This document shows, in pieces, positions 1,398 through 38,607 of a stretch of 64,000 nucleotides of DNA. How positions within the stretch are numbered: the first letter of the stretch is position 1; every line of letters starts with the position of its first letter. Source of the stretch: Escherichia phage Av-05. Under the pieces are notes generated by a model. That model did no database searches, had not been told where the DNA came from, and saw nothing but the letters and a program-made list of their open reading frames with translations. Position numbers and translations under genes: made by a program. The DNA is taken from sequence record KM190144. The stretch is one strand, 5' to 3'.

Positions 1398-1446
1398 AAG
1401 ACCTCCATATTTTCTATTCCTACCATAGAAGGTAGTTTACCACGAA

Positions 1447-1484
1447 TAACGATAAAAATAAAGCCCTTACCCTTAAATAAGGGC
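1447..1484 (-). terminator. Rho-independent terminator after spanin genes
   Basis: Hairpin GCCCTTA/TAAGGGC (1463-1484) followed on minus strand by TTTATTTTTAT. Confidence 0.55.
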
Positions 1485-1492
1485 ATTGTCAA

Positions 1493-1786
1493 CTATTTGT
1501 CTGAAGAAAATATTGTCTTTACATACTGCTGCAACGTTCTTAATTTCATGCGATCTTCAGCAGCATTAATGTTGTTTTTCTTGATCACCTCGATGGCATC
1601 TGCGTTGCTGAGACCACGAGGCAATTTTTCAGGTTCTTTCGGTGGTATCATAGCTTCAGCGGGTGGTCTTGCTAAAAGATCGCTTATCACAACTTCTTTT
1701 GCAACAGGAACAACTCTCTCAGGTGGTGAAGTGCACCCTGTTAACATAAACAATAGAAAAGGAACCATGATAACATACTTTTTCAT
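1493..1786 (-). CDS. o-spanin (outer-membrane lipoprotein, Rz1-like)
   Basis: Signal peptide with lipobox LTGC, Pro-rich mature region, start overlaps stop of upstream i-spanin. Confidence 0.6.
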   Translation of the reverse strand: MKKYVIMVPFLLFMLTGCTSPPERVVPVAKEVVISDLLARPPAEAMIPPKEPEKLPRGLSNADAIEVIKKNNINAAEDRMKLRTLQQYVKTIFSSDK

Positions 1787-2184
1787 TTAGACCCCAAACT
1801 GTCGTTATAGATATCAACAAACTGGTTATCGAGGCAAACCTGTTTTCCTGCTTGTGTCTTGCTATAGCTTTTAATCTTTTTGTCAAGATTTTCTTTCAAT
1901 TGATTGTTGATTTCCCTCTCTTGCACTAACATGGTTGACAATTCATCTATCTTATCCTGCTGTTGCTTTTTAAAAGCGTTATTATGATCCCGAACTTGCT
2001 GGTTAATCCTCTCCCATTTAAGATCAGTGTCGCTGACACCTGCGTTGTACGACGATGTTAACTGGTCATTATACCAATGTTTTATCCCCAAGATACCACA
2101 GACGAGAACCACACCACACAAAACAACACCTATCTGTTTTATGTTCTTAGAAAAGAAAGTTAACAGCGTTTTAAACCATATCAT
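1783..2184 (-). CDS. i-spanin (Rz-like, N-terminal TM plus coiled coil)
   Basis: N-terminal hydrophobic segment IGVVLCGVVLVCGILGI, charged helical remainder; ATGA overlap with upstream gene. Confidence 0.6.
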   Translation of the reverse strand: MIWFKTLLTFFSKNIKQIGVVLCGVVLVCGILGIKHWYNDQLTSSYNAGVSDTDLKWERINQQVRDHNNAFKKQQQDKIDELSTMLVQEREINNQLKENLDKKIKSYSKTQAGKQVCLDNQFVDIYNDSLGSK

Positions 2185-3536
2185 GATATATCCCCATCAC
2201 ACTCAATAATGTTTTCAATTTTCAGTGTTGTTTTTCTGTTTTCAGAAATATTAATCTTATCAGTTATGATATCGTATTGCATCTCAGATGGATTACTTAT
2301 TGAGACATCTAAGAGAACTGCGCCAGGTTTATACGTTTCATATCCATAACCATCTGTCTTACCCTCCTTGCACAGGTATTCGTAATATTCTCTTGCCTTC
2401 TTCTCATCAACATAAAGGCTGAGAGTGCGAAAATTATTTGCTATATCTTCTTTGTAAAGCCCAACATAATGTGTATCTTTTGTTGGCATCATGAGATAGA
2501 AAACTTCAGCAGGACAAACTCCATATAGTTTTGTAAAGTATTTCCTGCCTGTTGCTTTTCTTAATCTTTGAAAGATATTAAACATATTAATTTTAGATAC
2601 ATCATTAAACGGCAACGGTTGCACAGGGGTAACATTTTTGTCTACCTGCTGGCAACAAGATTCTAATCTGTCCAGGCACTCAACCAAAGAATCAAGTGAA
2701 AACTGTTTTGTCTCATCAAAGATATCAGACAGTTTCATTCCGTACATCCCGCTAAGATGTGACTTTGCCGATTCCCAACTTTCTATCTGAAGGCTAGCAA
2801 TGGTCATGGACAGTTTCATTGTCTCTTTTTTCGAAATTGTATAGCCACGAGATTTGTATTTTTCAGATCTCAAAAGTGACATAATCGGGTATTCAGTCTT
2901 ATGATTTACAACTAAGACCCTTTGAGCGATATGTTTTAAGAAGTTGCTATCAAATTCCCACACACCATCTTTGAAGTTAAAAGCACCCATATTTATTGTA
3001 AAATCAAATTTGCTAAAGATATCTTCTGTTGTTTTGAACACATCCATAGCCACACATTGAAAGACAGGCTCTTGTCCAAAGTAAAACATCACACTCTTAT
3101 CTGTCACACCAACCTTTTTGGTTGGTAAATTATCATCTTCATCACCTAAATAATCGCATTCATTGTCATATTTTCTACCTCTAGAAAGAGGATCTGTAAA
3201 ATTTGAAAATGAGGTGTCGCCGTGATCAAGTTTATAGAAATTCCTAAATGCTATTTTTTGTTCTGAGGCCCAGCCATTTGTTTTCTCAGACAAATCATAC
3301 TTTCCTGACAAGAGTCTTTTATCCATCATGTACGCAATGAATATCTCAAGATTTTCCCAAGATGGGAAATACAAATCAAGATCGTTGACTTTACTATTAG
3401 AGAACAAAGAGGTTATTGCCCCGCCAGCTATCTTAACATTCAGCTTTGACAATAAATCATAAACACCTTTTGGTATAAAAGAGCGCAAAATGTCATACTC
3501 TCTTTGAAAATCTTCTTTTTTGAAAACATGCAACAT
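2181..3536 (-). CDS. Hypothetical 452-aa protein with nucleotidyltransferase-fold-like motif, co-transcribed with spanins
   Basis: Start at internal ATG 3536 with GGAGAG RBS; motif KIAGGAITSLFSNSKVNDLDLYF fits hG[GS]x(9-13)DhDh of Pol-beta superfamily; no lysozyme motif recognised. Confidence 0.5.
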   Translation of the reverse strand: MLHVFKKEDFQREYDILRSFIPKGVYDLLSKLNVKIAGGAITSLFSNSKVNDLDLYFPSWENLEIFIAYMMDKRLLSGKYDLSEKTNGWASEQKIAFRNFYKLDHGDTSFSNFTDPLSRGRKYDNECDYLGDEDDNLPTKKVGVTDKSVMFYFGQEPVFQCVAMDVFKTTEDIFSKFDFTINMGAFNFKDGVWEFDSNFLKHIAQRVLVVNHKTEYPIMSLLRSEKYKSRGYTISKKETMKLSMTIASLQIESWESAKSHLSGMYGMKLSDIFDETKQFSLDSLVECLDRLESCCQQVDKNVTPVQPLPFNDVSKINMFNIFQRLRKATGRKYFTKLYGVCPAEVFYLMMPTKDTHYVGLYKEDIANNFRTLSLYVDEKKAREYYEYLCKEGKTDGYGYETYKPGAVLLDVSISNPSEMQYDIITDKINISENRKTTLKIENIIECDGDIS

Positions 3537-3582
3537 CTTAACTCTCCTTGAGTACAAAACAAGATGCGTAAAGACTAGCACA

Positions 3583-3609
3583 TAAAGAAAAACCCCGCAA
3601 TAGGCGGGG
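3583..3609 (-). terminator. Rho-independent terminator at 3' end of tRNA operon
   Basis: Hairpin CCCCGC-AATAG-GCGGGG; minus strand T-run follows (plus-strand A-run 3583-3591). Confidence 0.6.
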
Positions 3610-3741
3610 TTAGGCATAGGAGAGGAGATTGATTGGATTATTATTATAGTTATTTGAGAAAAGTGGCGAAGGAACCTTTACATGTCGAGAGTGTCTTACC
3701 GTTTACTCAGCCACGACCTTCCTTAGTGTCCACTTTAATTC

Positions 3742-3817
3742 TGGTTGCGAGTATTGGGATCGAACCAATCTGGACTGGCTTATGAGACCAGCGAAGTCAC
3801 CAGACTTCAAACTCGCA
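3742..3817 (-). tRNA. tRNA-Met (anticodon CAU), CCA encoded
   Basis: Manual cloverleaf: acceptor TGCGAGT/ACTCGCA, anticodon loop CTCATAA, T-loop TTCGATC. Confidence 0.75.
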
Positions 3818-3821
3818 ATGT

Positions 3822-4052
3822 TCATTTATTACCAAGAGAAATCCTTCTAGGTGGATGACCAAAATGGATCTCATAAGAACCATCAAGTCTTCCTTTCTTT
3901 GTCCGGCAATACTTATCTACTTTCTTGTAGTCCTTCACCTCTTGAGTAGTATACCTAGAATCGGCAATAAGTAGAATAAGAGGCCACCCAACACAAAATT
4001 TTCTAACTGTCTCTATTTTTTGGATATATGCACTCTTCAATTTTCTTCGCAT
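3822..4052 (-). CDS. Small basic hypothetical protein (76 aa) between tRNA genes
   Basis: ORF track only. Confidence 0.3.
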   Translation of the reverse strand: MRRKLKSAYIQKIETVRKFCVGWPLILLIADSRYTTQEVKDYKKVDKYCRTKKGRLDGSYEIHFGHPPRRISLGNK

Positions 4053-4067
4053 GATCTATTTCCTGTT

Positions 4068-4143
4068 TGGTGTGACGGACAGGATTCGAACCTGTGACCA
4101 CCTAGTCTTCAGCAAGGCACTCTACCAACTGAGTTACCGTCAC
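4068..4143 (-). tRNA. tRNA-Phe (GAA), CCA encoded
   Basis: Acceptor GTGACGG/CCGTCAC, D-arm ACTC..GAGT, anticodon loop CTGAAGA, T-loop TTCGAAT. Confidence 0.8.
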
Positions 4144-4148
4144 ATGAT

Positions 4149-4225
4149 TGGTAGGCGATGAGGGACTCGAACCCCCAAAATTCAGGTTCTAAGCCTGACA
4201 TGTATACCAATTCCATCAATCGCCC
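4149..4225 (-). tRNA. tRNA with anticodon UAG (Leu codon family) but class I (short variable loop) architecture
   Basis: Acceptor GGGCGAT/ATCGCCT, anticodon stem TCAGG/CCTGA, loop CTTAGAA, 5-nt variable loop, T-loop TTCGAGT, discriminator A, CCA encoded. Confidence 0.6.
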
Positions 4226-4239
4226 ATCTATATTAACAG

Positions 4240-4431
4240 TTACGGTTTTCCGCGATACACAGAAATAGTTTTTCCATTGGCATTGATCACGTAGGCGGTC
4301 TGATCCTCAGACAAAAATACTTTTTGATCAACGCCGGAAATAGCTATAGACTTTTGATGAGCGCAATACCCAACAATTTTGCCACAAAAAATTTGTTCAT
4401 CATTTGGGGAGACTACTTTAACTGTTAACAT
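4240..4431 (-). CDS. Small hypothetical protein (about 64 aa)
   Basis: ORF track trimmed to internal ATG preceded by GAGGA; upstream part of track ORF overlaps tRNA-Pro. Confidence 0.3.
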   Translation of the reverse strand: MLTVKVVSPNDEQIFCGKIVGYCAHQKSIAISGVDQKVFLSEDQTAYVINANGKTISVYRGKP

Positions 4432-4473
4432 GGTATCCTCTGTACATTTCTGTTTTGATATGTATATGTTTGT

Positions 4474-4551
4474 TGGTCTGTCCGGTTGGATTTGAACCAA
4501 CGACCTGATCATCCCAAGTGACCCGCGCTACCCAAGCTGCGCTACGGACAG
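4474..4551 (-). tRNA. tRNA-Pro (UGG), CCA encoded
   Basis: Acceptor CTGTCCG/CGGACAG, D-stem GCGC, anticodon loop CTTGGGA, T-loop TTCAAAT. Confidence 0.8.
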
Positions 4552-4635
4552 AGAGATGTAGATTTTAATTGTCCCAGAATCTACAAACTGGTATCGCTGG
4601 CTAGGTGATATCTGTGACTTGATTAAGTCAAGAAT

Positions 4636-4726
4636 TGGCGGTTCCTGAAGGATTCGAACCTTCGGTGGGGAGATTCCTCCCAACGGCTTAACAGGCCGTC
4701 ACCATCGACCACTCGGTCAAAGAACC
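4636..4726 (-). tRNA. Class II (long variable arm) tRNA with anticodon GUU (Asn codons); identity ambiguous
   Basis: Acceptor GGTTCTT/AGGAACC, Ser-like D-arm ACC-GAGTGGTCGAT-GGT, anticodon stem ACGGC/GCCGT with loop CTGTTAA, 19-nt variable arm TGGGAGGAATCTCCCCACC, T-loop TTCGAAT, discriminator G, CCA encoded. Confidence 0.55.
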
Positions 4727-4735
4727 AGAATATTT

Positions 4736-4812
4736 TGGTGGATCTGGTTAGATTCGAACTAACAATCCCTCGATTAAAAGTCAAGTGCCTTAAACCATTT
4801 GGCTACAGATCC
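4736..4812 (-). tRNA. tRNA-Lys (UUU), CCA encoded
   Basis: Acceptor GGATCTG/CAGATCC, anticodon loop CTTTTAA, T-loop TTCGAAT. Confidence 0.8.
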
Positions 4813-5034
4813 TTTAAATTATCTTTAAAATAGCTAATTACTCGCACATAATTAGCTATACGCAACAGCCCTCTAGGGAGGGCACACTAATGATAGATTA
4901 CGATTACATGACCATCATGAGTGTTTGACTTACGCCAGTAAAGAGCGGACTGCTCTGGGGTATCGGTAAGATGGTTGCAGCCATCCACCGAAAAATCACA
5001 CCAAGCAACTAAACAAGCTACATTAAAGATAACT

Positions 5035-5123
5035 TGGAGGAGGCTGACAGAATCGAACTGTCACCATATCTCTACAGCGGGACTGGGTTCAAACCAGCTT
5101 GTGCACCATGCACCCCAGCCTCC
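5035..5123 (-). tRNA. tRNA-Ser (UGA), class II, CCA encoded
   Basis: Acceptor GGAGGCT/AGCCTCC, anticodon stem GCTGG/CCAGT loop TTTGAAC, long variable arm, T-loop TTCGATT. Confidence 0.65.
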
Positions 5124-5201
5124 AAAAATAGCCTCTGCCGAGAAGATACACCCAACAAAGACGGCGCTCAGGTCCGAAGAAATCTGAGCCTTGACATACA
5201 G

Positions 5202-5295
5202 TGGAGGAAGATGCCAGACTTGAACTGGCACACCCATTTCTGGGTTACTATCTCCTTAGCAGGGAGACCCCTTACCAAATTAGGGTTAATCTTCC
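5202..5295 (-). tRNA. tRNA-Ser (GCU), class II, CCA encoded
   Basis: Acceptor GGAAGAT/ATCTTCC, anticodon stem TCTCC/GGAGA loop CTGCTAA, long variable arm, T-loop TTCAAGT. Confidence 0.7.
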
Positions 5296-5316
5296 AATAC
5301 CTTAGTAATTAAAAAC

Positions 5317-5406
5317 TGGTGGAGAAGGAGAGAATCGAACTCTCAAGCCGTTTTACCAGTCAGCACATTTCCAATGTGGTTTCGTCGCCAATCGATTTGC
5401 TTCTCC
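5317..5406 (-). tRNA. tRNA-Ser (GGA) candidate, class II, CCA encoded
   Basis: Acceptor GGAGAAG/CTTCTCC, T-arm GAGAG-TTCGATT-CTCTC, anticodon loop TTGGAAA with one mismatch in stem; D-arm irregular. Confidence 0.5.
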
Positions 5407-5415
5407 GTTTTAACT

Positions 5416-5491
5416 TGGCAGGGGATGGTTGATTCGAACAACCGATCACGGGGTCAAAGCCCGTTGCATTAGGCCACTATGCTAATCCCCT
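5416..5491 (-). tRNA. tRNA-Gln (UUG), CCA encoded
   Basis: Acceptor AGGGGAT/ATCCCCT, D-stem GCAT/ATGC, anticodon stem ACGGG/CCCGT loop CTTTGAC, T-loop TTCGAAT. Confidence 0.8.
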
Positions 5492-5492
5492 T

Positions 5493-5574
5493 TGGCACGA
5501 GAGTGAGGAATCGAACCCCTTAGTCACTGGTTTTGGAGGCCAGCCTTCACCCAGTGAAGTTACGCTACTCTCAT
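5493..5574 (-). tRNA. tRNA-Trp (CCA) candidate with atypical, extended D-arm region
   Basis: Anticodon loop CTCCAAA followed by ACC as in E. coli tRNA-Trp; T-loop TTCGATT; acceptor ATGAGAG/CTCTCGT; 79 nt before CCA. Confidence 0.5.
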
Positions 5575-5597
5575 TAAAAACTATTTTCGGAATGGGT

Positions 5598-6140
5598 TTA
5601 TATATAAAACGCCAACATCACTCTTTCTCTTGAGAAAGCTCGGTCTTCAGGAACAACACTCTTCAGTTTCCAACCAACATAAATTCGCCAGTAAAATTGT
5701 TTTCCAAACAGTCTGAAAGACGGGACAAACGCGAATAAACCCCACGCATTGTCATTCCACATCAGCAAGTAGCCTTGTTGATTATCCTCCACATCAGAGC
5801 TTACATGGATGTTTCCTTTCCACTTTGTCACAGATGTAATTTCACGCCCAAGTGCGTGATAGGAGAAATTGTAGGCTTTATTTCTCCACAACCAAGCAAC
5901 TCGTTGCAGATAAACACCAAAACTCCCTATCTTGCGAACTTCTGCCCATCTCTCTATGTGTCCTTTATCACCATCTATAGGATTATCATATGTTTCCATC
6001 CACCTGAAAATATAAGGTAGATGCCCTGTCTTCTCATTATAGAACGGAACAACAAAAGGAGCCAGAATAACACAGAGAACCGACATAACTGGGTCAAGAG
6101 GTGCTAACAGAATCCACGATAAATATTTCAAGTATCTCAT
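5598..6140 (-). CDS. Hypothetical protein (180 aa, hydrophobic N-terminus) embedded in tRNA cluster
   Basis: ORF track; no recognisable motif. Confidence 0.45.
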   Translation of the reverse strand: MRYLKYLSWILLAPLDPVMSVLCVILAPFVVPFYNEKTGHLPYIFRWMETYDNPIDGDKGHIERWAEVRKIGSFGVYLQRVAWLWRNKAYNFSYHALGREITSVTKWKGNIHVSSDVEDNQQGYLLMWNDNAWGLFAFVPSFRLFGKQFYWRIYVGWKLKSVVPEDRAFSRERVMLAFYI

Positions 6141-6367
6141 GCAGGATCAAGCCTAGATATAATGTACTGGTTTAAATCTGAATATGGGAAGATACTTTCA
6201 AAGATAACCTGTTTAAATCTGAAACCGCACAAACCGAAAAGTACCTTCTGACACTCCCCAAAAGAACAATCTTTACCAACTTTTATCACAACCGTATCGG
6301 CAACCTGCACACTTTCTATCTCTTTAGGTTCATGATGCCGTACTATGATTACTTTAGAAACCATCAT
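6137..6367 (-). CDS. Hypothetical protein (76 aa)
   Basis: ORF track; 4-nt overlap with downstream ORF suggests coupling. Confidence 0.4.
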   Translation of the reverse strand: MMVSKVIIVRHHEPKEIESVQVADTVVIKVGKDCSFGECQKVLFGLCGFRFKQVIFESIFPYSDLNQYIISRLDPA

Positions 6368-6492
6368 ACTCGTCCGTATTAAAGCCTTCTACTAAAGATA
6401 GAAGATGTCTAGGGTTGGACCGCAAACTCAACCCCATGGAATTTGTTACGGTCTTCAGTTGACCCAAGCGGATTTCATTGACATCTTTTAGA

Positions 6493-6567
6493 TGGAGCAT
6501 CCAGAGGGTATCGAACCCTCGACTTCAGCTTGGAAGGCTGTAGTTTTCCCAATTAAACTATGGATGC
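6493..6567 (-). tRNA. tRNA-Gly (UCC), CCA encoded
   Basis: Acceptor GCATCCA/TGGATGC, D-stem GTTT/AAAC, anticodon loop CTTCCAA, T-loop TTCGATA. Confidence 0.75.
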
Positions 6568-6572
6568 ATATT

Positions 6573-6648
6573 TGGTGGGAGTGGTAGGCTCTGCCCCTAC
6601 GTCCTCTCGATTATCGGTCGAGCGATCTACTAACTGATCTACACTCCC
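6573..6648 (-). tRNA. tRNA-Ile (GAU)-like gene with non-canonical T-loop and C33
   Basis: Acceptor GGGAGTG/CACTCCC, D-arm GATC-AGTTAGTA-GATC, perfect anticodon stem CTCGA/TCGAG with loop CCGATAA, T-arm GTAGG-GGCAGAG-CCTAC lacks TTCGA, CCA encoded. Confidence 0.45.
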
Positions 6649-6716
6649 AAACTGTACTGGCCCAACAACCACGATTGGAGGGTATCGTCACACATCAAAG
6701 CCAGTACAGATTTAGT

Positions 6717-6806
6717 TGGTGTGCCGTGATAGAGTCGAACTACCCGAGTCCCTTTCGAGACAGGAGATTTACAGTCTCCCCCGCTACCCCTACGGTCTAA
6801 CGACAC
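6717..6806 (-). tRNA. tRNA-Tyr (GUA), class II, CCA encoded
   Basis: Acceptor GTGTCGT/ACGGCAC, anticodon stem GGAGA/TCTCC loop CTGTAAA, long variable arm, T-loop TTCGACT. Confidence 0.75.
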
Positions 6807-6807
6807 A

Positions 6808-7155
6808 TTAACCTTGTTTGAATTGAACAATATCCGTCGAGAACGGTTTAGCTGCCTTAATGGGAGCTTTTTCTGAGTTATCTTTTTCGAGTAACTCTTC
6901 GTTTTCCTCATCAAAGTAATCAGAAAGCATCTGCTCACCTTTCTCAATAACATAGCGAGCAATATTTTCTCTGATATTGTCTTTTGTATTCACATTCTTC
7001 ATCAAATCCCTAAGAACCTGATGAGCTTCAGGAATCATTGCAATCAGATTCGTTTTCAAATCTAGGATATTTTTCTCTAACTGAATTGCATTAGATTCCT
7101 CTTTCAGAGGACGACCTTTTCCTCTTCTACGTTTTGTAAGCTGCTTAGTAGCCAT
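6808..7155 (-). CDS. Hypothetical basic protein (about 116 aa; MATKQLTKRRRGKGRPLKE...)
   Basis: ORF track trimmed to ATG at 7155 downstream of a consensus promoter; the longer track ORF overlaps tRNA genes. Confidence 0.45.
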   Translation of the reverse strand: MATKQLTKRRRGKGRPLKEESNAIQLEKNILDLKTNLIAMIPEAHQVLRDLMKNVNTKDNIRENIARYVIEKGEQMLSDYFDEENEELLEKDNSEKAPIKAAKPFSTDIVQFKQG

Positions 7156-7174
7156 TTTAAAACCCCACTTAATG

Positions 7175-7203
7175 ATATTATCAAATAAAAACATATCTGT
7201 CAA
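7175..7203 (-). promoter_or_regulatory. Sigma70-like promoter (TTGACA-17-TAATAT)
   Basis: Minus strand -35 TTGACA at plus 7198-7203, 17-nt spacer, -10 TAATAT at plus 7175-7180. Confidence 0.6.
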
Positions 7204-7240
7204 GTGGTATTTTAACATATTTACCAAGAAATTGAAAGTT

Positions 7241-26960: not shown

Positions 26961-27837
26961 GGATTAGTTACATATGTAACTAACAACTAACGTTGCTAAA
27001 TTGTGTCCATGAATGGATGAGGAATAATATTCCTCCCAGCTATCGCTGCAATATTGTGTTGTAAAACGATTAGCTGAGAATCAGCTAACCCGTGAAACGG
27101 GCTAAATTATTCTCATTAATCCCCCGATTATTCCTCAGTAAATCACTTGTTTATCACGTTTAATCAGCCTGTTTAACAGGCCAGTAATGTGATGATCATT
27201 AACCACGATTATTGTTTGTATTATCCAGAATAAACCGCTTATCATGTTGTTATTATGTTGCCAAGTGCCTGAAATGCCAGATCAATTTGGTCACTGCGTG
27301 ATTATGATTGCGACAATAATTTGTTTGTGATTTGCATCTATTCATAACAAAATTGCTATTATGTTGCTATTCTATTGTTAAACACCCTTTTATCTTTTCC
27401 CTTGCATTTTCGTTATATTTGATTTGTTATCGTTTTCTTTCATTTTGTTTCGTTATTGAAAACAAGAATTATTATCATCTATGTGCCTTAACAGGCTGGC
27501 GGGTCTGTTAGTGGTCTGGTTGTCTGGCCTGTTATTGTTAGCTTGCTTATTGTTGTGTGGTGTATGTATCAGTTAGCTAGTACATTGTGTGGTGCGCATA
27601 ACGTGTATTATGTTAAATCAGGTGGCCCACAAGTAAGGCCGTATGTCAATAGCAATAAGTGCTGTGTGTGGTAGGACTGGCCTATCAGTGTGCCCCTTTG
27701 TTGTGTGATGCTCTCAGTGTGTGACCTGTCTGCTGTGTGCGCTGCGTCAAATCTCGAGCGGTTCTCGATCGCAATAGCTGTAAGATATTTTGTAAAGATT
27801 CGTAGTTTTTCTTGACACCCGCAATCGTCCGTCTAAC

Positions 27838-27893
27838 CCTTCAGAGATAGATCCTTCAGAGATTTATCTGGGCTTTTTACCCTTCAGAGATAG
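27838..27893. repeat. Three tandem copies of CCTTCAGAGAT(A/T)
   Basis: CCCTTCAGAGATAGAT, CCTTCAGAGATTTAT, CCCTTCAGAGATAGAT read directly. Confidence 0.55.
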
Positions 27894-28201
27894 ATACATG
27901 GCAAATTCGCACAAATTTACCACCTGCCATGCCACGTCACTAATCTCGCAAGGATATTTCTGTAAGTGAACCTGCACACAATGCAGCACGCATCTTGTTG
28001 TGTGGGGAGGGTGGGGGTAATAATCAGGAACTGGTCTGACAGTGATAACGCATTGGATAAAACTCTGCGGGGCTTGGTGATGATATTTGTGTGGGTAGAT
28101 GATGATGGATAAGAGATAAGACACTTGTCTCCGACAGGGGTGGGGTGTGGAAAAGAAATGGGCCTGTTGACCCATTGCGATATAGAAATGAAATGGTTAT
28201 C

Positions 28202-30979: not shown

Positions 30980-31121
30980 TACCGATAACTAATAATATTG
31001 CCACAGTGAGCAACCAAAAGAGATAGGCATTTCCAAAGATGGTCATTGGAAACACAACAACAAACAAAACAAGCAGTACGACAGGAACCCCGACACACAA
31101 ATTCTTCAGCACTTCCTTCAT
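30933..31121 (-). CDS. Small membrane protein (62 aa)
   Basis: ORF track; hydrophobic. Confidence 0.35.
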   Translation of the reverse strand: MKEVLKNLCVGVPVVLLVLFVVVFPMTIFGNAYLFWLLTVAILLVIGIGLGAAIREKYDFWQ

Positions 31122-31123
31122 AA

Positions 31124-31444
31124 TTACAAACTATCCTCCTTCTTTGGCAATGGCATAAAACTTGGCGGTAATTCACCACCTAATGACCAACGTAGAAGGT
31201 AATTATATCCTGGGAGTCTCTTTATACCCCCTTCTCCTTTATACACCCACGGAACAAGCGTAGATTCAAATTTTCTCTTGCCTGTCTTTGACTCGTACAA
31301 TAGCCACATACCTTGGGTATTGGTTCCTGTATCCGTCCAATTTATCTGCCACTCTGATGTTCCCACTAATTCGAAATTGTCTGTTTCTTTCTTTTTCTTA
31401 AGCCATCCAAACATCACTCTATCCTCACTGATACGTAACGCCAT
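31124..31444 (-). CDS. Hypothetical protein (106 aa)
   Basis: ORF track. Confidence 0.45.
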   Translation of the reverse strand: MALRISEDRVMFGWLKKKKETDNFELVGTSEWQINWTDTGTNTQGMWLLYESKTGKRKFESTLVPWVYKGEGGIKRLPGYNYLLRWSLGGELPPSFMPLPKKEDSL

Positions 31445-31571
31445 GTTCTTTTGTAATATTCTACAGTTTCCTTCAGTTTGTCAAGAGGAACTTTAGTTTT
31501 CAACACCCACCAGTTTCCCAAGTATTCGGTAGAACATGCACTCATCCTGCCACATATGGTATACGTTGCCA

Positions 31572-31772
31572 TTACATCCTCCACGTTAGTTTCTGAGCAA
31601 TCTCTAACAGGGCATCTATCTTGTGCATATACTCTTTCCTTTTCTCACTGCCAGGAGGGAATTGGTCTCTCGTTTGCATCAAGGTTTTTATCTCTCCAGA
31701 CAGATGATTAAGGATCTCAACGCGCTCACGTTTTCGACCTAGTTGCTCAATTTCTTTATCACGACAATTCAT
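31572..31772 (-). CDS. Hypothetical protein (66 aa)
   Basis: ORF track. Confidence 0.4.
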   Translation of the reverse strand: MNCRDKEIEQLGRKRERVEILNHLSGEIKTLMQTRDQFPPGSEKRKEYMHKIDALLEIAQKLTWRM

Positions 31773-31788
31773 AATGCGCCCTACAGTG

Positions 31789-31816
31789 TTGTCAAACTAT
31801 GAAAGTATGATAATAT
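31789..31816 (+). promoter_or_regulatory. Sigma70-like promoter (TTGTCA-16-TAATAT)
   Basis: Motif reading upstream of 31852 gene. Confidence 0.5.
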
Positions 31817-31851
31817 ATGGTGCAACAACTTACAATAGCAGGAGACGATTA

Positions 31852-32058
31852 ATGACTGTGAAAATACCTAAAGGTGGCAGACCAGATAGAAATGCATGTG
31901 ACATGCGTGTAAGAGTAGGGAGAATGTGCCTAATTTATGGAATAACTTATCCACCAATGGTGCGGCTTAATGGTAAAATATGTAAGGTCATCGACATACC
32001 AAAAGATAACACAACACGCTTCTTGTGCAAGGTTAAAGATGAAGAGAAGGGTTTTTAA
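31852..32058 (+). CDS. Hypothetical protein (about 68 aa), lone plus-strand gene in minus-strand block
   Basis: Track ORF trimmed to ATG after AGGAGA. Confidence 0.45.
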   Translation: MTVKIPKGGRPDRNACDMRVRVGRMCLIYGITYPPMVRLNGKICKVIDIPKDNTTRFLCKVKDEEKGF

Positions 32059-32136
32059 CATCCCACACAAAAACCTAACAGTTTTGGATCTTAATGACAA
32101 CATTGTTATCTCCAGATACAGAGATAGCCACTGAAA

Positions 32137-32169
32137 ATAAAAAAGGCCAAGAGAAATCTTGGCCTTTTT
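32137..32169. terminator. Bidirectional rho-independent terminator
   Basis: A-run, hairpin GGCCAAGA-GAAA-TCTTGGCC, T-run; between convergent genes. Confidence 0.6.
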
Positions 32170-32495
32170 CTGGGTAAAAATACCCTTTTACTTTTGGTAG
32201 GTACTTAAAATAAATGTCTTACTATAGCACAAAGATATTTTTCAAAATGCTACAACTCGACCTTATCATCGACCTATAGATGCTTGCCTTCAGCACAACA
32301 CAAGTGTTAACGAATGTTGCGAGTTGACTACACATCGGTCTTCAGGTGCTTCTTTCGGCTATCTATTACTAGACAAAATCCGTCACCATGAACATCTGGC
32401 CTTTAAAATACAAAGCGGAGAGTTCTTATACTTACCAAACATAAATCTTTAATATAAGTATACCATACTCTCTATCATAATGCAACAGCCTATGT

Positions 32496-33215
32496 TTATT
32501 CAAAATCATCAACACCGCTATCGGTAAGGTTTTCTCTGCTCGAGGGTTTTGTTGAAAGAACTTGCTCAAGCAGAGAGGAGAATTTCTGCAAATTGCTTAC
32601 AGAAGAAGTTCCTGTTGCCATGGCAAGCATATCCACTTCTTTTTCGGTAGGTTGCGTCCAGTCTAGAAACATCTCTTTCATGTACAACGTTGATGTCCCT
32701 ATTGGTGTGGCGTGGTCAACCCTATCAGCATAGACCCAGAAAAGAACTTCTTTCTCTATACATACACACAAAGCAGCACCCAACGAGTATCCTGTAACGA
32801 GGATCTCGACATTCAGGTCATCCCAGTGAAATACAACACCCAAACACTTCATACCCACAATGTCTTCCACTGCGGGTTTTAGCTCCTCATGGGAAGAAAG
32901 GGAGTCATAGTTAATATTCTTTATGAATTTAAGAACGTCTTGGCTGTTGTAGACGCAATCACTATCTCCTTGCTTCCAGTAACCCCAAAATGAAGTCGAC
33001 AAATTCAACCAAAAACTTGCAGTTGTCCCTAATGTCTCAGCCAGTTTTTCAGCCACATCCTCTGTTACTTCTTCCATGTTATATAGGATAGTTCTTAACT
33101 TATTTACAGGTATACCAGATCTGTCGGCAAGATCATCCACACACCAACCTAATGGATCCAGATATTCGTGGATAATAACCTCACCTGGTGACGCTGGTGC
33201 TCTTTCTTTCTGCAT
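32496..33215 (-). CDS. HigA-like HTH (XRE-family antitoxin-type) domain fused to an about 170-aa C-terminal domain of unknown function
   Basis: N-terminal GEVIIHEYLDPLGWCVDDLADRSGIPVNKLRTIL...LAETLGTTASFWLNLSTSFW resembles the HigA/VapI HTH signature (...SxxFWLNLQ); start trimmed to ATG after AAGGGGAAAG. Confidence 0.55.
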   Translation of the reverse strand: MQKERAPASPGEVIIHEYLDPLGWCVDDLADRSGIPVNKLRTILYNMEEVTEDVAEKLAETLGTTASFWLNLSTSFWGYWKQGDSDCVYNSQDVLKFIKNINYDSLSSHEELKPAVEDIVGMKCLGVVFHWDDLNVEILVTGYSLGAALCVCIEKEVLFWVYADRVDHATPIGTSTLYMKEMFLDWTQPTEKEVDMLAMATGTSSVSNLQKFSSLLEQVLSTKPSSRENLTDSGVDDFE

Positions 33216-33268
33216 TCTTTCCCCTTTTTCTCTACCAGAAAACCCTGCAAAGCAGGGTTTTGTTACTA

Positions 33269-33472
33269 TCAGCATTTAGGCGAGCATTTATCGCACGGGC
33301 ATGAAATGCCGTGGAAACACAAACCTGTTCCGTCTTTCTTGACCCCTGTCCCACCACATTGGGGACAACTATCGTGTAAGCATTTTGTTTTTGTTGTCTC
33401 CTCTTCATCTTTATTAAAGAGGTTTTTCATAATCATTTTCTGTTGTTCAATCGTAAACATTTGCGTCCCCAA
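33269..33472 (-). CDS. Small Cys-rich zinc-ribbon protein (67 aa) with DnaJ-type CxxCxGxG motif
   Basis: CPQCGGTG and additional Cys pairs (CFHGISCPCDKCSPKC). Confidence 0.5.
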   Translation of the reverse strand: MGTQMFTIEQQKMIMKNLFNKDEEETTKTKCLHDSCPQCGGTGVKKDGTGLCFHGISCPCDKCSPKC

Positions 33473-33753
33473 AATCTTTCAAGTGCTTCTGCCTCTTCCA
33501 TGTTTGGGAAGATACCATAGAAACAGAACTTACCTTTAGAGAAGTACGGAATAAATACCTGCCCATCAGATGTTTGAAACATCTTGTCAAAATTTGGTAG
33601 CTTCAGGTGGGATTTTATAGCCTCTTTAATACTTTTATCCCATTGATGCTGCCATTTACAGACTTTTAGGTACTCACTAATATTGTAAGAACCTACTCTC
33701 CCCACAATACTGGAAAGAAACTTTTTATTTTTACGAATAATCTTCTTTTTCAC
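33433..33753 (-). CDS. Hypothetical protein (106 aa), paralog pair member
   Basis: N-terminus MKKKIIRKNKKFLSS resembles upstream paralog MKKKLVRRNKLFLSKS. Confidence 0.45.
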   Translation of the reverse strand: MKKKIIRKNKKFLSSIVGRVGSYNISEYLKVCKWQHQWDKSIKEAIKSHLKLPNFDKMFQTSDGQVFIPYFSKGKFCFYGIFPNMEEAEALERFWGRKCLRLNNRK

Positions 33754-34036
33754 TCAAAGACCTCGTCTCTTCAAACTGCTCTGGTGTCAATAAACTTGTT
33801 CCTACACGACTGCCATTACCACACATAATGGGCACGGCAATCATGTGGCTATCCTTTTCTGCATTACTTAAATCAAGGTACTGCCCATAACGTTTAATAA
33901 GTCGATGTTTCATTTTTGACTTAGCAAAAGCCCTCTCATTATAGAGATAATCCTCAAGGTACAAATGCATTGCGTTTGCGGATTTTAAGGATTTCGATAA
34001 GAATAATTTATTACGCCGTACCAGTTTTTTCTTCAT
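33731..34036 (-). CDS. Hypothetical protein (101 aa), paralog pair member
   Basis: ORF track; shared N-terminal motif with 33433-33753. Confidence 0.45.
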   Translation of the reverse strand: MKKKLVRRNKLFLSKSLKSANAMHLYLEDYLYNERAFAKSKMKHRLIKRYGQYLDLSNAEKDSHMIAVPIMCGNGSRVGTSLLTPEQFEETRSLSEKEDYS

Positions 34037-34229
34037 GCAACCCTCGCTTGTGCCTGTACATTGCTAAGGGCCATACAGAACTCACTATAAAGCATTTCCA
34101 TGCCCAGCCCCATGCAGTTTTTGGTGCATATACCTGCTCAAGTATTTTACTATTCTCCATCTCTGCGGTATGTACAAACCATACAGCAATATACAATGTA
34201 ACTATAATGTAGATAAAGCCATTAATCAT
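34011..34229 (-). CDS. Small membrane protein (72 aa)
   Basis: ORF track; hydrophobic N-terminal half. Confidence 0.35.
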   Translation of the reverse strand: MINGFIYIIVTLYIAVWFVHTAEMENSKILEQVYAPKTAWGWAWKCFIVSSVWPLAMYRHKRGLHEEKTGTA

Positions 34230-35283
34230 TCATCTTATCCCAGCACATTTGTTGCGCTGTCATCAAAACATCGGCAGCAAAGTTAAGATCTGTTGTCTTC
34301 GGTAAATGCGTGTTCTTGTACAGAGTGTTACGAATATAATCATCCTTCTCTTCTGCCCAAGCCAAGAGCTTCTCCAAAGACCATGCACCATTCCTGATTG
34401 CAAGAAGCTCCTGAGCATCAGGTCTTTTTACTAAGACTTTACCTTCTGCTAAGATCTCCTCAGCCATACGCATCAATCTTACCAAATGGAGGGCATGTTT
34501 GCAATCGTACCCGTACTTTTCTTCTAACTCATGCCGGACCGGATTTCTGTTTTCAACCCATGCCCAGTAGTTCTTATGCTTTTCCTTCGCTTGTTTATGG
34601 TCATCTGCCAGATATTTAACGATTAAAATTGGCTTACGTTTCTTATCCTCGTCAGAGAACTGCTCGTATGGAACTTTACGAATAGAACCATCAGAGTTAA
34701 ACAAACCAGCGTTGTCATGTGTACCAATCACACCATAGATATTATCACCCATCGGCAAAAAGACACACAACTTATTAAGGTCATCCAGCATTTTCTGGAA
34801 GTCTTTATGTTTTGTAAGATTATCATCCATCCACGAGTGTGTCAAGCGCATGAACTCTTTTTGTGTTGGTTGCTCTTTAGGTTGCGGGTTATTAATCCAT
34901 TTATTATGGCCTTTGATACGCTTAAGTTGCGCCATCGCGTACCCAGAAAATGTAAAAGCAACTTTGCTTGATAGAAGTTTTGGCGCTTGCTCGCGTAGGT
35001 ACTCGTAAACATCTGAAGTTTGCAGAATGTCACCTCTATCAACAAACATAAGCTCGATAATGTTTGGGTTCATATCAACGAACAGCTTCATATAGTTTGT
35101 TAGCTCATACAGCTTACCATCCTCTTCATCAATAAGAGTCATCTCCCTGTCAACGAAAAATGGGGTAAGAATGCTTTTAGGCTCTGCACAATAAATTCCG
35201 CGAATATCCACATCGGATGTTGGCAAGTTAGTTCCATAGGCAATACTGCCGGAGTAACAACGCATTAGTTCTAGTTTCTTCAT
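34222..35283 (-). CDS. Nucleotidyltransferase-fold (Pol-beta superfamily) protein (353 aa)
   Basis: Classic motif GSIAYGTNLPTSDVDIRGIY (GSx(9-13)DhDh) at N-terminus, helical C-terminal domain. Confidence 0.6.
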   Translation of the reverse strand: MKKLELMRCYSGSIAYGTNLPTSDVDIRGIYCAEPKSILTPFFVDREMTLIDEEDGKLYELTNYMKLFVDMNPNIIELMFVDRGDILQTSDVYEYLREQAPKLLSSKVAFTFSGYAMAQLKRIKGHNKWINNPQPKEQPTQKEFMRLTHSWMDDNLTKHKDFQKMLDDLNKLCVFLPMGDNIYGVIGTHDNAGLFNSDGSIRKVPYEQFSDEDKKRKPILIVKYLADDHKQAKEKHKNYWAWVENRNPVRHELEEKYGYDCKHALHLVRLMRMAEEILAEGKVLVKRPDAQELLAIRNGAWSLEKLLAWAEEKDDYIRNTLYKNTHLPKTTDLNFAADVLMTAQQMCWDKMND

Positions 35284-35660
35284 TGTTGTACCTTTTTGTC
35301 TTTTCTTGCATTATCCCAAAAATTAAGGATATTTTGGTAACGGATTTTGTCTTCCATATATTCAGCTTCATCACGAAGACCACATACATGGTCTATTAAG
35401 GCACATACTTCATTATGGTATTCTGTGCCACTCGTGATGTGTTTAATCATACAAGATCCTGCTTTCCATTTCGAGAGGGAGTATCTCAGATTATCATCTT
35501 TTTCTGTGGGGAAAGCATCAACAAGCACCTTTGCTCTATTCCCTTGTATCGTTTGCACTGTTCCTCGGCGCAGTTCGTTATTACCCCAATAGATAAATAC
35601 TGTATCGCCAACAAATAATCTTGTTCCGCTTGCATCCCTCATTTTATGCCCCCAACACAA
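35280..35660 (-). CDS. Hypothetical protein (126 aa)
   Basis: ORF track. Confidence 0.45.
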   Translation of the reverse strand: MCWGHKMRDASGTRLFVGDTVFIYWGNNELRRGTVQTIQGNRAKVLVDAFPTEKDDNLRYSLSKWKAGSCMIKHITSGTEYHNEVCALIDHVCGLRDEAEYMEDKIRYQNILNFWDNARKDKKVQQ

Positions 35661-35988
35661 AGAAATAATGAACTGTTACCGCTGCAAAGTAAAGCGTTTT
35701 GGAAATCAATCGTAGCCAGCAATCTCTGTTTGTATACACTTTTCCTGCTAAGATATTACTCCCTGTTACGATATTTCCCCACAGCCACACAACAAACAAG
35801 AATGCTCCGAGCAAACCACTTGTCGGTGGTGTTAATGTAGTAATCATCGCAATACCTTCGAGGGTGGCGAATATGAAGAAGTATGGAAATGCCTCCCTTA
35901 CACATTTTATTCCTTTGCCAGTAATGCAGGTATTAACTAAACCTATAAGACAAAATATCGTCCAAAGCACATACAATGTATAAACCAT
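35644..35988 (-). CDS. Membrane protein (114 aa, multiple TM)
   Basis: ORF track; hydrophobic. Confidence 0.45.
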   Translation of the reverse strand: MVYTLYVLWTIFCLIGLVNTCITGKGIKCVREAFPYFFIFATLEGIAMITTLTPPTSGLLGAFLFVVWLWGNIVTGSNILAGKVYTNRDCWLRLISKTLYFAAVTVHYFFVLGA

Positions 35989-36053
35989 AATCCACTTAAC
36001 CCCAAAAATGTTAACCTCTCCAAACCTATCAGAGAGGTTTCAAAAATAATCTA

Positions 36054-36551
36054 CTACTCACCTTTTAGCTTAAAACTTTTCAATGTTTTGATAAAGTCTT
36101 TCTCCGCTGGTGTGTAAGTGTGTACGAAACCTGTCTCTTCGCAGGTGTAGGTATCATTAACCTCCATTGCGTGTGGAGGGATAAATGCACCATCAGGAAC
36201 AGACTTATATTCCGGGTTGTAGATAAATTCCGGCAGCACAACAGCTACAGCAGTCATTGCCCCATTCAAGGCTTTCTTTTCTTCACGCCACCAAGCCACA
36301 GGGTAGGTTTGTAAAGACATTGCCTGATCAAGAAAATCTTCAAGCACGGACTGATAACCACCATTCAAAACAATAATGGTCTTATCTTCTTCTTTCCAGC
36401 ATTTCAGCCAATGGTGTGCAGTGATCTGCTCTGGTGTATATGCTTCACCACTATGCAAAACCATAAGCTCTGCAATGGCGTGTGCTGATTGGATACCTGC
36501 ATGGATACCGCAGATATACTGGTTAACAATACAATACATTCTTGTTTTCAT
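36054..36551 (-). CDS. Hypothetical protein (165 aa) with weak PTH2-type peptidyl-tRNA hydrolase-like N-terminal motif
   Basis: MYCIVNQ..GIHAGIQSAHAIAEL loosely resembles PTH2 signature (hhVVR.DL.MG.GKIAAQ.SHAA); assignment tentative. Confidence 0.35.
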   Translation of the reverse strand: MKTRMYCIVNQYICGIHAGIQSAHAIAELMVLHSGEAYTPEQITAHHWLKCWKEEDKTIIVLNGGYQSVLEDFLDQAMSLQTYPVAWWREEKKALNGAMTAVAVVLPEFIYNPEYKSVPDGAFIPPHAMEVNDTYTCEETGFVHTYTPAEKDFIKTLKSFKLKGE

Positions 36552-36766
36552 TTTTGTTTCTTCCTCAAAATTATCCGTTCAGGACTGAAAAATTCTTTCA
36601 AACACAGGAAGATGGCTAATGCGCCACCCAACCACCAAAAAGGTATCAACAGCAAAGCAGGTATTAAGTCCTCTCCTGTGATACAATCCTGTGTTTTATA
36701 GGTCATGGTAAGAAATACACCTGCTGCTACTATCCCAGCAACCACATACAAGATCAGTTCAATCAT
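36548..36766 (-). CDS. Small membrane protein (72 aa)
   Basis: ORF track; two TM segments. Confidence 0.4.
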   Translation of the reverse strand: MIELILYVVAGIVAAGVFLTMTYKTQDCITGEDLIPALLLIPFWWLGGALAIFLCLKEFFSPERIILRKKQK

Positions 36767-37079
36767 TATCCCGTTTCTCCAGAAACGCTTTCACCGCAAG
36801 AGCCGCAGCGTAAATTGCCACAAGACAAATACAAAATGTGAAAATAATAGGTAAAACCATTACCGCAAACATCATAAACAGTGGTCCTGCAACAGTAACG
36901 AATGCTGTTCCAAGCAACAATAGAAATACCACATATTTATCTGCCGTCTCATCCACCTTCTTAAGATACACACCTAAACACACAGAAGACAACAGGAATG
37001 ACAGAATGGACAGCAATAGATACCAATTATCAATAAAGATGATAATTGGACCAGCAACATTTTCTAGCCACCACATCAT
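36759..37079 (-). CDS. Membrane protein (106 aa)
   Basis: ORF track; three hydrophobic segments. Confidence 0.4.
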   Translation of the reverse strand: MMWWLENVAGPIIIFIDNWYLLLSILSFLLSSVCLGVYLKKVDETADKYVVFLLLLGTAFVTVAGPLFMMFAVMVLPIIFTFCICLVAIYAAALAVKAFLEKRDND

Positions 37080-37093
37080 ATATACTTACCTCT

Positions 37094-38338
37094 TTAGAAT
37101 AACATATCTCTGCTGATTGCTTTACGAATAGCATCAATACGGGCTACTCGCACAGCCTCACCAATCTCTTTACCCTTCTTACCTTTTTCCAGAAGGGGTT
37201 TTGTTATAGCTTTAGAATCAACTTTTGTCATAGCGTCGTAGGCTTCCAACAAAATATGACCCTGAGGATAAGGTTTATGTCTAAAATCACCACCTCTCCC
37301 TTTAGCATCACAATAACACGCATCTGCAAGTGTGTAAACCTTTATTTTCTGATCAGCTTGTCCAGCAGCTTCAAATATTTTCATGATGCTTTTTGGTTTC
37401 AAACCGTTGTTACCATCTTTGGGGGAGATGGCGTGCACTTTTGTGTGATTTTCCGCAACATATTTTGCCGTGTCACGATAGATATTATAAATCTTCAACC
37501 TTTCACACAAGGATTGGATAACATCTACACCAGCTTTTTCATGACCATGAAGATTACCATTGTCCTTATGAGTCACAGCTTTGCCAAAATCATGGCACAG
37601 CACAGCAAACTTGGTCAGTGGATCAGCTCCTAATTCATCAGCAACCCGTAACGCTAGAATTGTATGGGTGTAAGCATCCCCTTCTGGGTGATGTTCTTTA
37701 GGTTGTTGCACACCACGTAGGGCTTCCAGTTCAGGGAGTTCGCCAATACGTCCCATATTGACAGCAAAAGATCTGAAATAACCACTCTTTAAGGCTTTCA
37801 ACATTTCCTTCCATTTACGCTCGGCGCTTATTTCTGCCAAAGAGTGTCGGTTGTCATAAGCCAGTTTAAAAGTTTCTGGATGGATATGCCATTCTTCCCC
37901 AAGCTGGGCTTTAAATCTAAACAGGCGTAGAATACGTAATGGATCTTCAATAAATGCCTGTGATGTATGACGTAATGTTTTAAGTCCTAAGTCAACCTGA
38001 CCACCAAAAGGATCTATAATTTCACCACTCTCAACATCCATCGCCATGGAATTGATGGTTAGGTCTCTACGTGCCAAATCCTCTTCCAGAGTTACATCTG
38101 GACTAAAGCATACCTCAAATCCTTTATGGCCTTCACCTGTTTTTCTTTCTGTGCGTGCAAGAGCGTACTCTTCTCTTGTTTCTGGGTGAAGATAAACTGG
38201 AAAAGATGCGCCAACTTGTGTGAACCCTCTTTTCAACATCTCTTCATGCGTAGCACCAACAACCACATAATCACGGTCTGATATTTCACGACCTAACAAT
38301 TTATCTCTTACTGCGCCACCTACCAAGTATACCTTCAT
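37094..38338 (-). CDS. cca: CCA-adding enzyme (class II tRNA nucleotidyltransferase with HD phosphohydrolase domain)
   Basis: N-terminus MKVYLVGGAVRD...DRDYVVVG...RDLTINSMA matches bacterial Cca head domain; HD-type motif LCHDFGK; start at ATG overlapping upstream stop (ATGA). Confidence 0.85.
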   Translation of the reverse strand: MKVYLVGGAVRDKLLGREISDRDYVVVGATHEEMLKRGFTQVGASFPVYLHPETREEYALARTERKTGEGHKGFEVCFSPDVTLEEDLARRDLTINSMAMDVESGEIIDPFGGQVDLGLKTLRHTSQAFIEDPLRILRLFRFKAQLGEEWHIHPETFKLAYDNRHSLAEISAERKWKEMLKALKSGYFRSFAVNMGRIGELPELEALRGVQQPKEHHPEGDAYTHTILALRVADELGADPLTKFAVLCHDFGKAVTHKDNGNLHGHEKAGVDVIQSLCERLKIYNIYRDTAKYVAENHTKVHAISPKDGNNGLKPKSIMKIFEAAGQADQKIKVYTLADACYCDAKGRGGDFRHKPYPQGHILLEAYDAMTKVDSKAITKPLLEKGKKGKEIGEAVRVARIDAIRKAISRDMLF

Positions 38339-38607
38339 TTCTTCGCCCACGTATTCATATAATTAACAATATCTTTTACGGCTCTCTTTCCGTCTAGTGG
38401 ATAAACTATGTCATCGCTCATCCCACCGTGTTTTAGCATTGCTACCAGTCTAGTATATACCTCTTTTGGTCTTTTGCAAGTTCTTTTCTTCCATTTATGA
38501 CCGTCTGGGGAGTACTCCTTATCTTCAAGAGAGATATGAAGTATATCCCCTATAAACTCTTTAGCCTGTGTGCTGTAAAGTGGACGGTGGAATATGTAGA
38601 ATTTCAT
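38335..38607 (-). CDS. Hypothetical protein (about 91 aa) translationally coupled to cca
   Basis: Track ORF trimmed to ATG after AGGAGCAAGCA. Confidence 0.45.
   Translation of the reverse strand: MKFYIFHRPLYSTQAKEFIGDILHISLEDKEYSPDGHKWKKRTCKRPKEVYTRLVAMLKHGGMSDDIVYPLDGKRAVKDIVNYMNTWAKK

Follow-up and report, generated by a model that had tools for sequence, protein, structure and literature searches.

A HigA-type helix-turn-helix module fused to a gp172-like protein in Escherichia phage Av-05

Previous work has shown that in the type II toxin-antitoxin (TA) system HigBA of Proteus, the antitoxin HigA makes its sole base-specific DNA contact through Arg40 and a phosphate contact through Lys45 (PMC12266136). 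HigBA-chaperone systems of E. coli defend against phage (bioRxiv 10.1101/2024.02.24.581848), and phages in turn carry orphan antitoxins for counter-defence (PMC11825919). HigA-like genes are found in many phages, where they are routinely labelled 'plasmid antitoxin'. In phages of the Seunavirus type, a second gene set is of interest here, in the order gp166 (a nucleotidyltransferase), gp167 (a small membrane protein), gp168, gp169 (a zinc ribbon), gp170, gp171, gp172, a terminator and the convergent gp173. We analysed a 64,000-nucleotide stretch of Escherichia phage Av-05 (record KM190144), called the window below, and describe a minus-strand gene in it that joins a HigA-type helix-turn-helix (HTH) to a domain resembling gp172. 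The gene and its two parts are as follows.

32496..33215, minus strand: fusion gene for a HigA HTH and a gp172-like domain, 239 aa; ATG at 33215, stop codon at 32496-32498
32946..33215, minus strand: HigA/XRE-type helix-turn-helix module, residues 1-90 (TIGR02607; YbaQ, VapI and GraA PDB matches)
32499..32945, minus strand: gp172-like (phrog_19128) alpha/beta domain with acidic tail, residues 91-239 (alignment, tblastn, AlphaFold2)

The open reading frame (ORF) is longest when begun at ATG 33275 (259 aa), but we placed the start at ATG 33215 (MQKERAP), because the homologues all begin there (P0001-P0003 start with MQKERAP or MLKERAP). The protein matched phrog_1381 over its full length (3e-95). 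Existing database labels for it are 'hypothetical protein' or 'plasmid antitoxin with HTH domain', and literature searches found no study of it or of gp172. We are highly confident of its anatomy, a HigA HTH fused with gp172 and not part of a TA module.

The N-terminal part scored 58.5 bits (E = 4e-16) with the NCBIfam model TIGR02607 (antidote_HigA; cutoff 47.7) over residues 25-94 of the 259-aa ORF, while the generic Pfam models HTH_3 and HTH_26 scored under their gathering thresholds. Matches in the PDB were YbaQ of E. coli (2eby, E = 1.3e-11), VapI of Coxiella (3trb, E = 3.4e-8) and GraA of P. putida (6f8h, E = 4.6e-7), and the identity to plasmid HigA proteins was 35-41%. The recognition helix keeps N38, K39 and R41 in the pattern xxN+VxxI, as in YbaQ and VapI (PVNKLRTIL, compared with PTNRVTAIL in VapI). 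Residues 1-90 can accordingly be counted, by these profile matches, as a bona fide member of the HigA sequence family, and the HigA/VapI resemblance noticed in the original prediction held in profile searches. When only the HTH was used as query, a word-indexed search for homologues yielded just two fragments of the fusion protein itself, so that the closest bacterial HigA lineage was untraceable by this type of search.

The C-terminal part has free-standing counterparts in Seunavirus, namely PVP-SE1 gp172, GAP31_104 and 4MG gp179, in a family whose proteins have 160-172 aa. In a tblastn search of phage genomes, residues 97-221 matched proteins of GAP31 and EC152 (E = 4e-5). This part also matched phrog_19128 (2e-8), which has no function assigned in PHROGs, and the fusion homologues P0001-P0003 matched the gp172-family profile with values of 2e-44 to 5e-42. 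At the junction, SQDVLKFIKN of the fusion aligns with the gp172 start MQDELIKLFVKD, and the alignment reaches the C-terminal helices, with ~30 invariant columns (W160, V166, Y178, F183, E193 and M196 among them) and 22-30% identity to the free-standing proteins. From this alignment we judge the domain to be a full-length member of the gp172 family. The long extension that had been announced is therefore present, with a length of ~150 aa rather than ~170 aa owing to the start at 33215; the term 'unknown' applied to it stands for its function, which is unassigned, but not for the domain itself, a full copy of the conserved free-standing gp172/phrog_19128.

The gp172 family is small: a profile search of a 5.8-billion-sequence collection found 25 proteins, fusions and fragments included. 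A profile of the C-terminal domain, run against 1.84 billion representatives, found 10 proteins, including a repeat protein that is a spurious match, and no distant annotated relative. AlphaFold2, given the 25-sequence alignment for residues 86-239, returned a confident model (predicted local distance difference test score, pLDDT, 87.8; predicted TM-score, pTM, 0.83). In the predicted fold, three N-terminal helices are followed by an antiparallel meander of six strands and then by two long C-terminal helices, with a short strand at the end. In a Foldseek search of BFVD, the only viral-model match was K4I1L4, the homologue from phage SSE121 (E = 6.9e-9, TM 0.74/0.70). Foldseek of the model against the PDB gave nothing below E = 0.05, and the gp172-family profile had zero matches at E <= 10 among PDB sequences. 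Structure prediction, which had been proposed as a check, led to a confident model that matched no solved structure convincingly. A single-sequence AlphaFold model of the full fusion protein was unusable (pLDDT 37). gp172 also evolves much faster than its neighbours, as the identity between the distant metagenomic lineage L012 and PVP-SE1 is 23% for gp172, 64% for gp171 and 43% for gp173; this rapid divergence is consistent with a protein whose interaction partner is itself changing.

Because the C-terminal part aligns along the entire gp172 and the HTH part has the length of a whole ~95-aa HigA, the protein is an end-to-end, in-frame fusion of two whole genes. The fusion is known from one narrow clade only, whose members are 92-97% identical, a distribution that would fit a non-functional accident, be it a read-through fusion of recent date or an artefact of assembly or gene calling. 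However, four GenBank records and several independent assemblies from metagenomes all have an intact reading frame, and the selection analysis contradicts an accident. The closest relative of positions 31000-36000 of the window is Escherichia phage vB_EcoM_TH18 (133.9 kb, Vequintavirinae; 91% DNA identity by megablast), the other matches being three partial records only. For the whole fusion gene, dN/dS was 0.10-0.14 in comparisons with TH18 and with the metagenomic lineage L008. Taken separately, each half had an omega of 0.05-0.20 and a dS of 0.10-0.42 (window, TH18 and L008 compared). Purifying selection acts on both domains of the protein. With dS reaching up to 0.16-0.42 at an omega of 0.05-0.2 in both halves, we give the accident practically no credence.

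A Pfam scan of the 72 ORFs of 60-165 aa in the window found no member of the HigB, RelE or ParE families, and tblastn of the window with the HigB partners of two of the best-matching plasmid HigAs gave nothing better than E = 0.4, in agreement with the earlier remark that no HigB-like partner was seen. The two plasmid relatives examined each lie 12 nt downstream of a 93-aa RelE/ParE-family HigB toxin, whereas the gene upstream of the fusion gene encodes a zinc-ribbon homologue of gp169, not HigB. Furthermore, a single-domain HigA has ~95-140 aa, and the fusion, at 239 aa, has a further folded domain of ~150 aa. Since toxin partner, protein size and operon structure are all unlike HigBA, the gene does not belong to a HigBA system, and the locus is no toxin-antitoxin module. 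PADLOC reported nothing for the fusion, the zinc ribbon, gp171 or gp172.

An orphan HigA module in 64 kb of toxin-free DNA might serve as an antitoxin decoy. It would neutralise a host or plasmid HigB/RelE-type toxin freed by an abortive-infection TA or toxin-antitoxin-chaperone (TAC) system, with the gp172-like domain as a stabilising or multimerising scaffold. The module scores as a full-length HigA by an NCBIfam equivalog model, the two plasmid relatives examined adjoin RelE/ParE-family HigB toxins, and HigA-like genes occur in many other phages, jumbo phages included. Its unusual acidity and the loss of the two DNA-contact positions of Proteus HigA, described below, point the same way, and precedents exist in the HigBA-chaperone defence systems and the phage orphan antitoxins mentioned above. 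TA pairs are, however, usually highly specific, and the nearest known HigA is only 41% identical, so that no cognate toxin can be named. A decoy would also leave the fusion to gp172 at the position of gp171 unexplained. We consider it unlikely.

The TH18-like clade keeps gp166, gp167, gp169, gp172 and gp173 of the Seunavirus-type order and has two genes with 'MKKK' N-termini in place of gp168; gp170 and gp171 are absent, and no homologue of either was found in the window. The fusion gene sits at the ancestral position of gp172, last in the nucleotidyltransferase operon and convergent with gp173. gp171 is an HNH/endonuclease-VII-like protein (phrog_1035 'endonuclease VII', 3e-17), and its gene overlaps that of gp172 by 16-47 nt in PVP-SE1, GAP31, 4MG, L012, L014 and L016 (16 nt in the Seunavirus-type order, 47 nt in L012). 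An overlapping gp171 precedes free-standing gp172 in all lineages examined whose operon is intact. In the window, no overlapping gp171 precedes the gp172-like domain, and the HTH coding sequence stands in its place.

We tentatively favour, at somewhat less than even probability, a mechanism in which the fusion protein is a DNA-tethered regulator or effector, because the module has the complete signature of the HigA fold and a partly conserved recognition helix, and because the HTH occupies the gp171 position. The HTH would dimerise and bind DNA like other HigA/XRE domains, and this binding would tether the gp172-like domain to DNA in cis, the protein acting as a phage transcription regulator or as a DNA-associated regulator or effector. 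The fused HTH may thereby supply in cis the DNA targeting that the translationally coupled gp171 may give in trans elsewhere. A bolder extension, which we regard as quite unlikely, is that gp172 is a rapidly evolving effector whose targeting partners can be exchanged and direct it to DNA or to a component of host defence, and that the fusion is a new counter-defence protein. The Seunavirus-like partner would be the coupled HNH nuclease, and the partner here a captured, acidified HigA module, making for instance a trap for HigB-family toxins or an inhibitor that binds DNA and derives from an antitoxin domain. The three roles offered in the original prediction, transcriptional regulator, anti-toxin decoy and sensor-effector fusion, all stay live as hypotheses.

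Several observations weigh against the DNA-tethered regulator. The HTH region is acidic (pI 4.3), and its net charge by hand count is ~-7; the five HigA domains taken as references, those of YbaQ, VapI, GraA and two HigAs from plasmids, range from -1 to +1. Arg40 and Lys45 of Proteus HigA presumably align with Thr42 and with Met47-Glu48-Glu49, in which case neither contact is conserved. The Proteus sequence in this alignment was checked at nine residues whose numbers are given in PMC12266136. No recurring palindromic operator was found in the window, where the search turned up only terminator hairpins and the palindromes of the unrelated divergent intergenic region at 13581-13978, and no promoter-like site was found directly upstream of the fusion gene. 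The C-terminal fold yielded no functional clue in the PDB and BFVD structure searches. Finally, the argument that gp171 was replaced is based on position alone, which makes it weak, and in Salmonella phage NINP13076 copies of gp172 occur with no gp171 beside them; the link between gp171 and gp172 is thus strong but not absolute.

In NINP13076 (L006), positions 1423-3315 form an inverted duplication of the convergent gp172/gp173 pair, with two gp173-gp172 units head to head, which is either real or an assembly artefact in this 161-kb record.

One conserved hairpin lies between the zinc-ribbon gene and the fusion gene.

33239..33261, minus strand: conserved hairpin AAAACCCTGC-TTT-GCAGGGTTTT, between the zinc-ribbon and fusion genes

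The stem is kept in TH18 (despite a 3-nt insertion), in L008 and in L009, an independent assembly. A single related copy was present elsewhere in the window, and the hairpin is hence not a recurring operator. As an operator it was rejected as unproven. It looks like the stem of a terminator with T residues after it, and no repeats of it lie near promoters; it could be an attenuator- or terminator-like element or an RNA-stability element.

Positions 32496-34036 hold four genes, all on the minus strand. The genes upstream of the fusion gene, up to the nucleotidyltransferase that serves as synteny anchor of the operon, are the following.

33269..33460, minus strand: zinc-ribbon protein, 63 aa, ATG at 33460 (maximal ORF from TTG 33472); phrog_17149
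33433..33753, minus strand: 106-aa protein with GTG start and MKKKIIRKNKKFLS N-terminus (ORF and BLASTP)
33731..34036, minus strand: 101-aa protein with MKKKLVRRNKLFLS N-terminus; phrog_12809, 2.4e-39
34011..34229, minus strand: small protein of 72 aa; phrog_11850, located where PVP-SE1 has gp167 (there annotated as membrane protein)
34222..35283, minus strand: RlaP-like nucleotidyltransferase; PF10127 (5e-13), phrog_388, 71% identity to the PVP-SE1 protein; gp166 counterpart

The zinc-ribbon protein has 8 Cys and 2 His with one CxxCxGxG motif (CPQCGGTG), a motif that is repeated in the DnaJ zinc finger, and is a homologue of PVP-SE1 gp169 (45% identity, E = 2e-17). It did not match the DnaJ zinc finger PF00684 or any other Pfam family at E <= 0.1, and its best matches among PDB sequences, L32 (E = 0.24) and anti-TRAP (E = 1.7), were not significant. 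The 106-aa and 101-aa proteins are significantly similar in BLASTP across their first 14 residues only; from residue 15 onward, shuffling gave p = 0.04 for local and p = 0.38 for global alignment. phrog_12809 matched the former at 1e-3, compared with 2.4e-39 for the latter, and the shared 14-residue motif had no further copy in the window. We took two weak matches as chance, that of the 106-aa protein to GIY-YIG (E = 0.04) and that of the 101-aa protein to AbiGi in PADLOC (E = 0.007). The original prediction had spoken of a DnaJ-type zinc ribbon and a tandem paralog pair: the CxxCxGxG motif and the N-terminal similarity are indeed there, but the first protein is a gp169 homologue rather than a Pfam DnaJ-family member, and the significant similarity of the other two is confined to their first 14 residues. 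In TH18 (L001), the 106-aa GTG-start gene is intact at 8125-8445, yet absent from the GenBank annotation.

The same prediction had placed these genes next to the HTH gene; they do not form a functional set around it. In L008, the 106-aa gene has deletions of 1 nt and 77 nt and the zinc-ribbon gene a 1-nt deletion (3540-3990), with flanking genes intact, and L009 has a 75-aa gene at the zinc-ribbon position, in agreement with the L008 frameshift. This points to ongoing gene decay in the variable region of L008 and L009. Since L008 has an intact fusion gene although both of these genes are disrupted, they are dispensable, and their products are not obligate partners of the fusion protein; the zinc ribbon is inherited synteny.

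These data bear on two further explanations. A small gene directly upstream of a higA-like gene resembles the higBA order, and the zinc-ribbon protein, at the usual position of HigB, or one of the supposed paralogs could be the toxin of an unconventional TA pair. But the zinc ribbon is a conserved gp169 homologue also present in phages without the HTH, it and the 106-aa gene are disrupted in L008 where the fusion gene is intact and under selection, and the neighbours had no similarity to any toxin family in Pfam or PADLOC, all of which makes such a pair extremely improbable. The other explanation is an autoregulator similar to the anti-CRISPR-associated (Aca) HTH proteins, in which the HTH protein encoded at the 3' end represses the promoter of the small accessory (anti-defence) genes upstream. 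An HTH with a dimerisation domain is typical of Aca proteins, and the fusion gene is indeed the last in a run of small genes without assigned function. Yet the region before the small genes showed no promoter-like site or palindromic operator, and their operon is a long one that also includes genes of housekeeping type (CCA-adding enzyme, nucleotidyltransferase). Moreover, Seunavirus has the zinc-ribbon gene without any HTH, and decay of the upstream genes is independent of the fusion gene. We find an Aca-like role very doubtful.

Downstream of the fusion gene, the window contains three features up to and including the convergent gene.

32135..32460, minus strand: plasmid-derived segment of ~320 nt with a stable predicted RNA fold, between the fusion-gene stop and the terminator
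32139..32170, no strand assigned: bidirectional intrinsic terminator closing both convergent transcription units
31774..32134, plus strand: convergent gp173-like gene (phrog_13562 family), frameshifted

The 32135-32460 element, which ends in the bidirectional terminator, was absent from TH18 and from every phage record searched; the L008/L009 lineage has it. Non-coding DNA of plasmids from E. coli and from E. albertii (those of E. albertii typed IncFII/IncI-gamma/K1) matches it with 95-97% identity, and the identity to ColE1-type plasmids of 4.6 kb from Klebsiella and Pseudocitrobacter is 89%. In plasmids, it adjoins genes for 131-aa and 279-aa proteins without assigned function, the latter showing no homology to the fusion protein. 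Compared with shuffled controls, its folding gave z = -5.5, the minus strand being the likely RNA, and most substitutions in predicted pairs preserve pairing. No Rfam family matched it. It is probably non-coding, because its 37-aa ORF is frameshifted in two lineages. We consider it a candidate for a small mobile structured RNA element, captured from plasmids and common to plasmids and phage. An extra nucleotide near 32052 (GGG for GG) breaks the gp173-like gene into a 94-aa and a 54-aa ORF, and the gene is intact in TH18 and L008 (115-119 aa); the copy in the window is either a pseudogene or a sequencing error.

By its match to TH18, the phage is a member of the Vequintavirinae, a placement that agrees with the flanking genes, among them those for the CCA-adding enzyme, the RlaP-like nucleotidyltransferase and a PhoH-like protein and 14 tRNA genes. 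Seunavirus is the closest named genus: the nucleotidyltransferase is 71% identical to that of Seunavirus, 67% to that of Mydovirus-like Klebsiella phages and ~54% to the Vequintavirus type. The tRNA genes are located at 4068-9659. A minus-strand cluster related to RNA repair and translation (36054-38350 and 34222-35283) comprises the CCA-adding enzyme, a weak PTH2-like match and the RlaP-like nucleotidyltransferase; the weakly PTH2-like protein in 36054-38350 is phrog_3668 'hydrolase', and the Pfam PTH2 match (E = 0.0016) probably comes from that ORF. Together, the tRNA genes and this cluster suggest a tRNA-maintenance toolkit.

Two non-coding regions elsewhere in the window also contain repeats. 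An ORF-free stretch of ~1 kb at 26990-28020 has scattered short direct repeats, with GCGTTATTGTGT-type units spaced by 106-151 nt and three copies of ACCCTTCAGAGATAGAT, and may be an origin or a regulatory region. The AT-rich divergent intergenic region at 13581-13978 separates the leftward from the rightward gene blocks and contains duplicated palindromes, TGTCCC-N7-GGGACA (two copies, 25 nt apart) and TATAATAC-N3-GTATTATA (two copies, 76 nt apart), which are candidate operators or hairpins.

The fusion thus joins a HigA module under selection to a clade-restricted, fast-evolving protein of unmatched predicted fold, at the position that a nuclease-like gene has in related phages. It offers a testable handle on whether phage HigA modules are regulators or toxin decoys, and another on the function of the gp171-gp172-gp173 module of Vequintavirinae. 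Should the fusion prove to be an ordinary DNA-binding regulator, its significance would be limited to better annotation.

Compared with the HigA antitoxins of type II HigBA systems (Proteus vulgaris HigA, YbaQ, VapI, GraA), the fusion shares the whole HTH signature xPxSPGEvi..EyL.PLG ... FWLNL, but it has 239 aa instead of ~95-105 aa, no HigB, a net charge of ~-7 and no conserved equivalents of the Proteus Arg40 and Lys45; it is also found in a virulent phage, within a long operon and with no promoter of its own seen. With the gp172 family (PVP-SE1 gp172, GAP31_104, 4MG gp179) it has in common an end-to-end alignment, the final position in the same operon and predicted folds that superpose (TM 0.74). 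It differs by a domain pI of 4.5 against 7.8, a different acidic C-terminal tail, and a fused HTH rather than a preceding, overlapping HNH-like gene. Like the phage orphan antitoxins (T4 Dmd and the AdfN NADAR proteins; PMC11825919), it represents a toxinless module of an antitoxin family in a lytic phage, but the module here is joined to an unrelated domain and has no target toxin that can be named. Finally, two-domain XRE/Cro-type regulators such as CI-like repressors and Aca likewise have an N-terminal XRE-superfamily HTH followed by a C-terminal alpha/beta domain, and by analogy with these the gp172-like domain of the fusion could mediate oligomerisation or partner binding.

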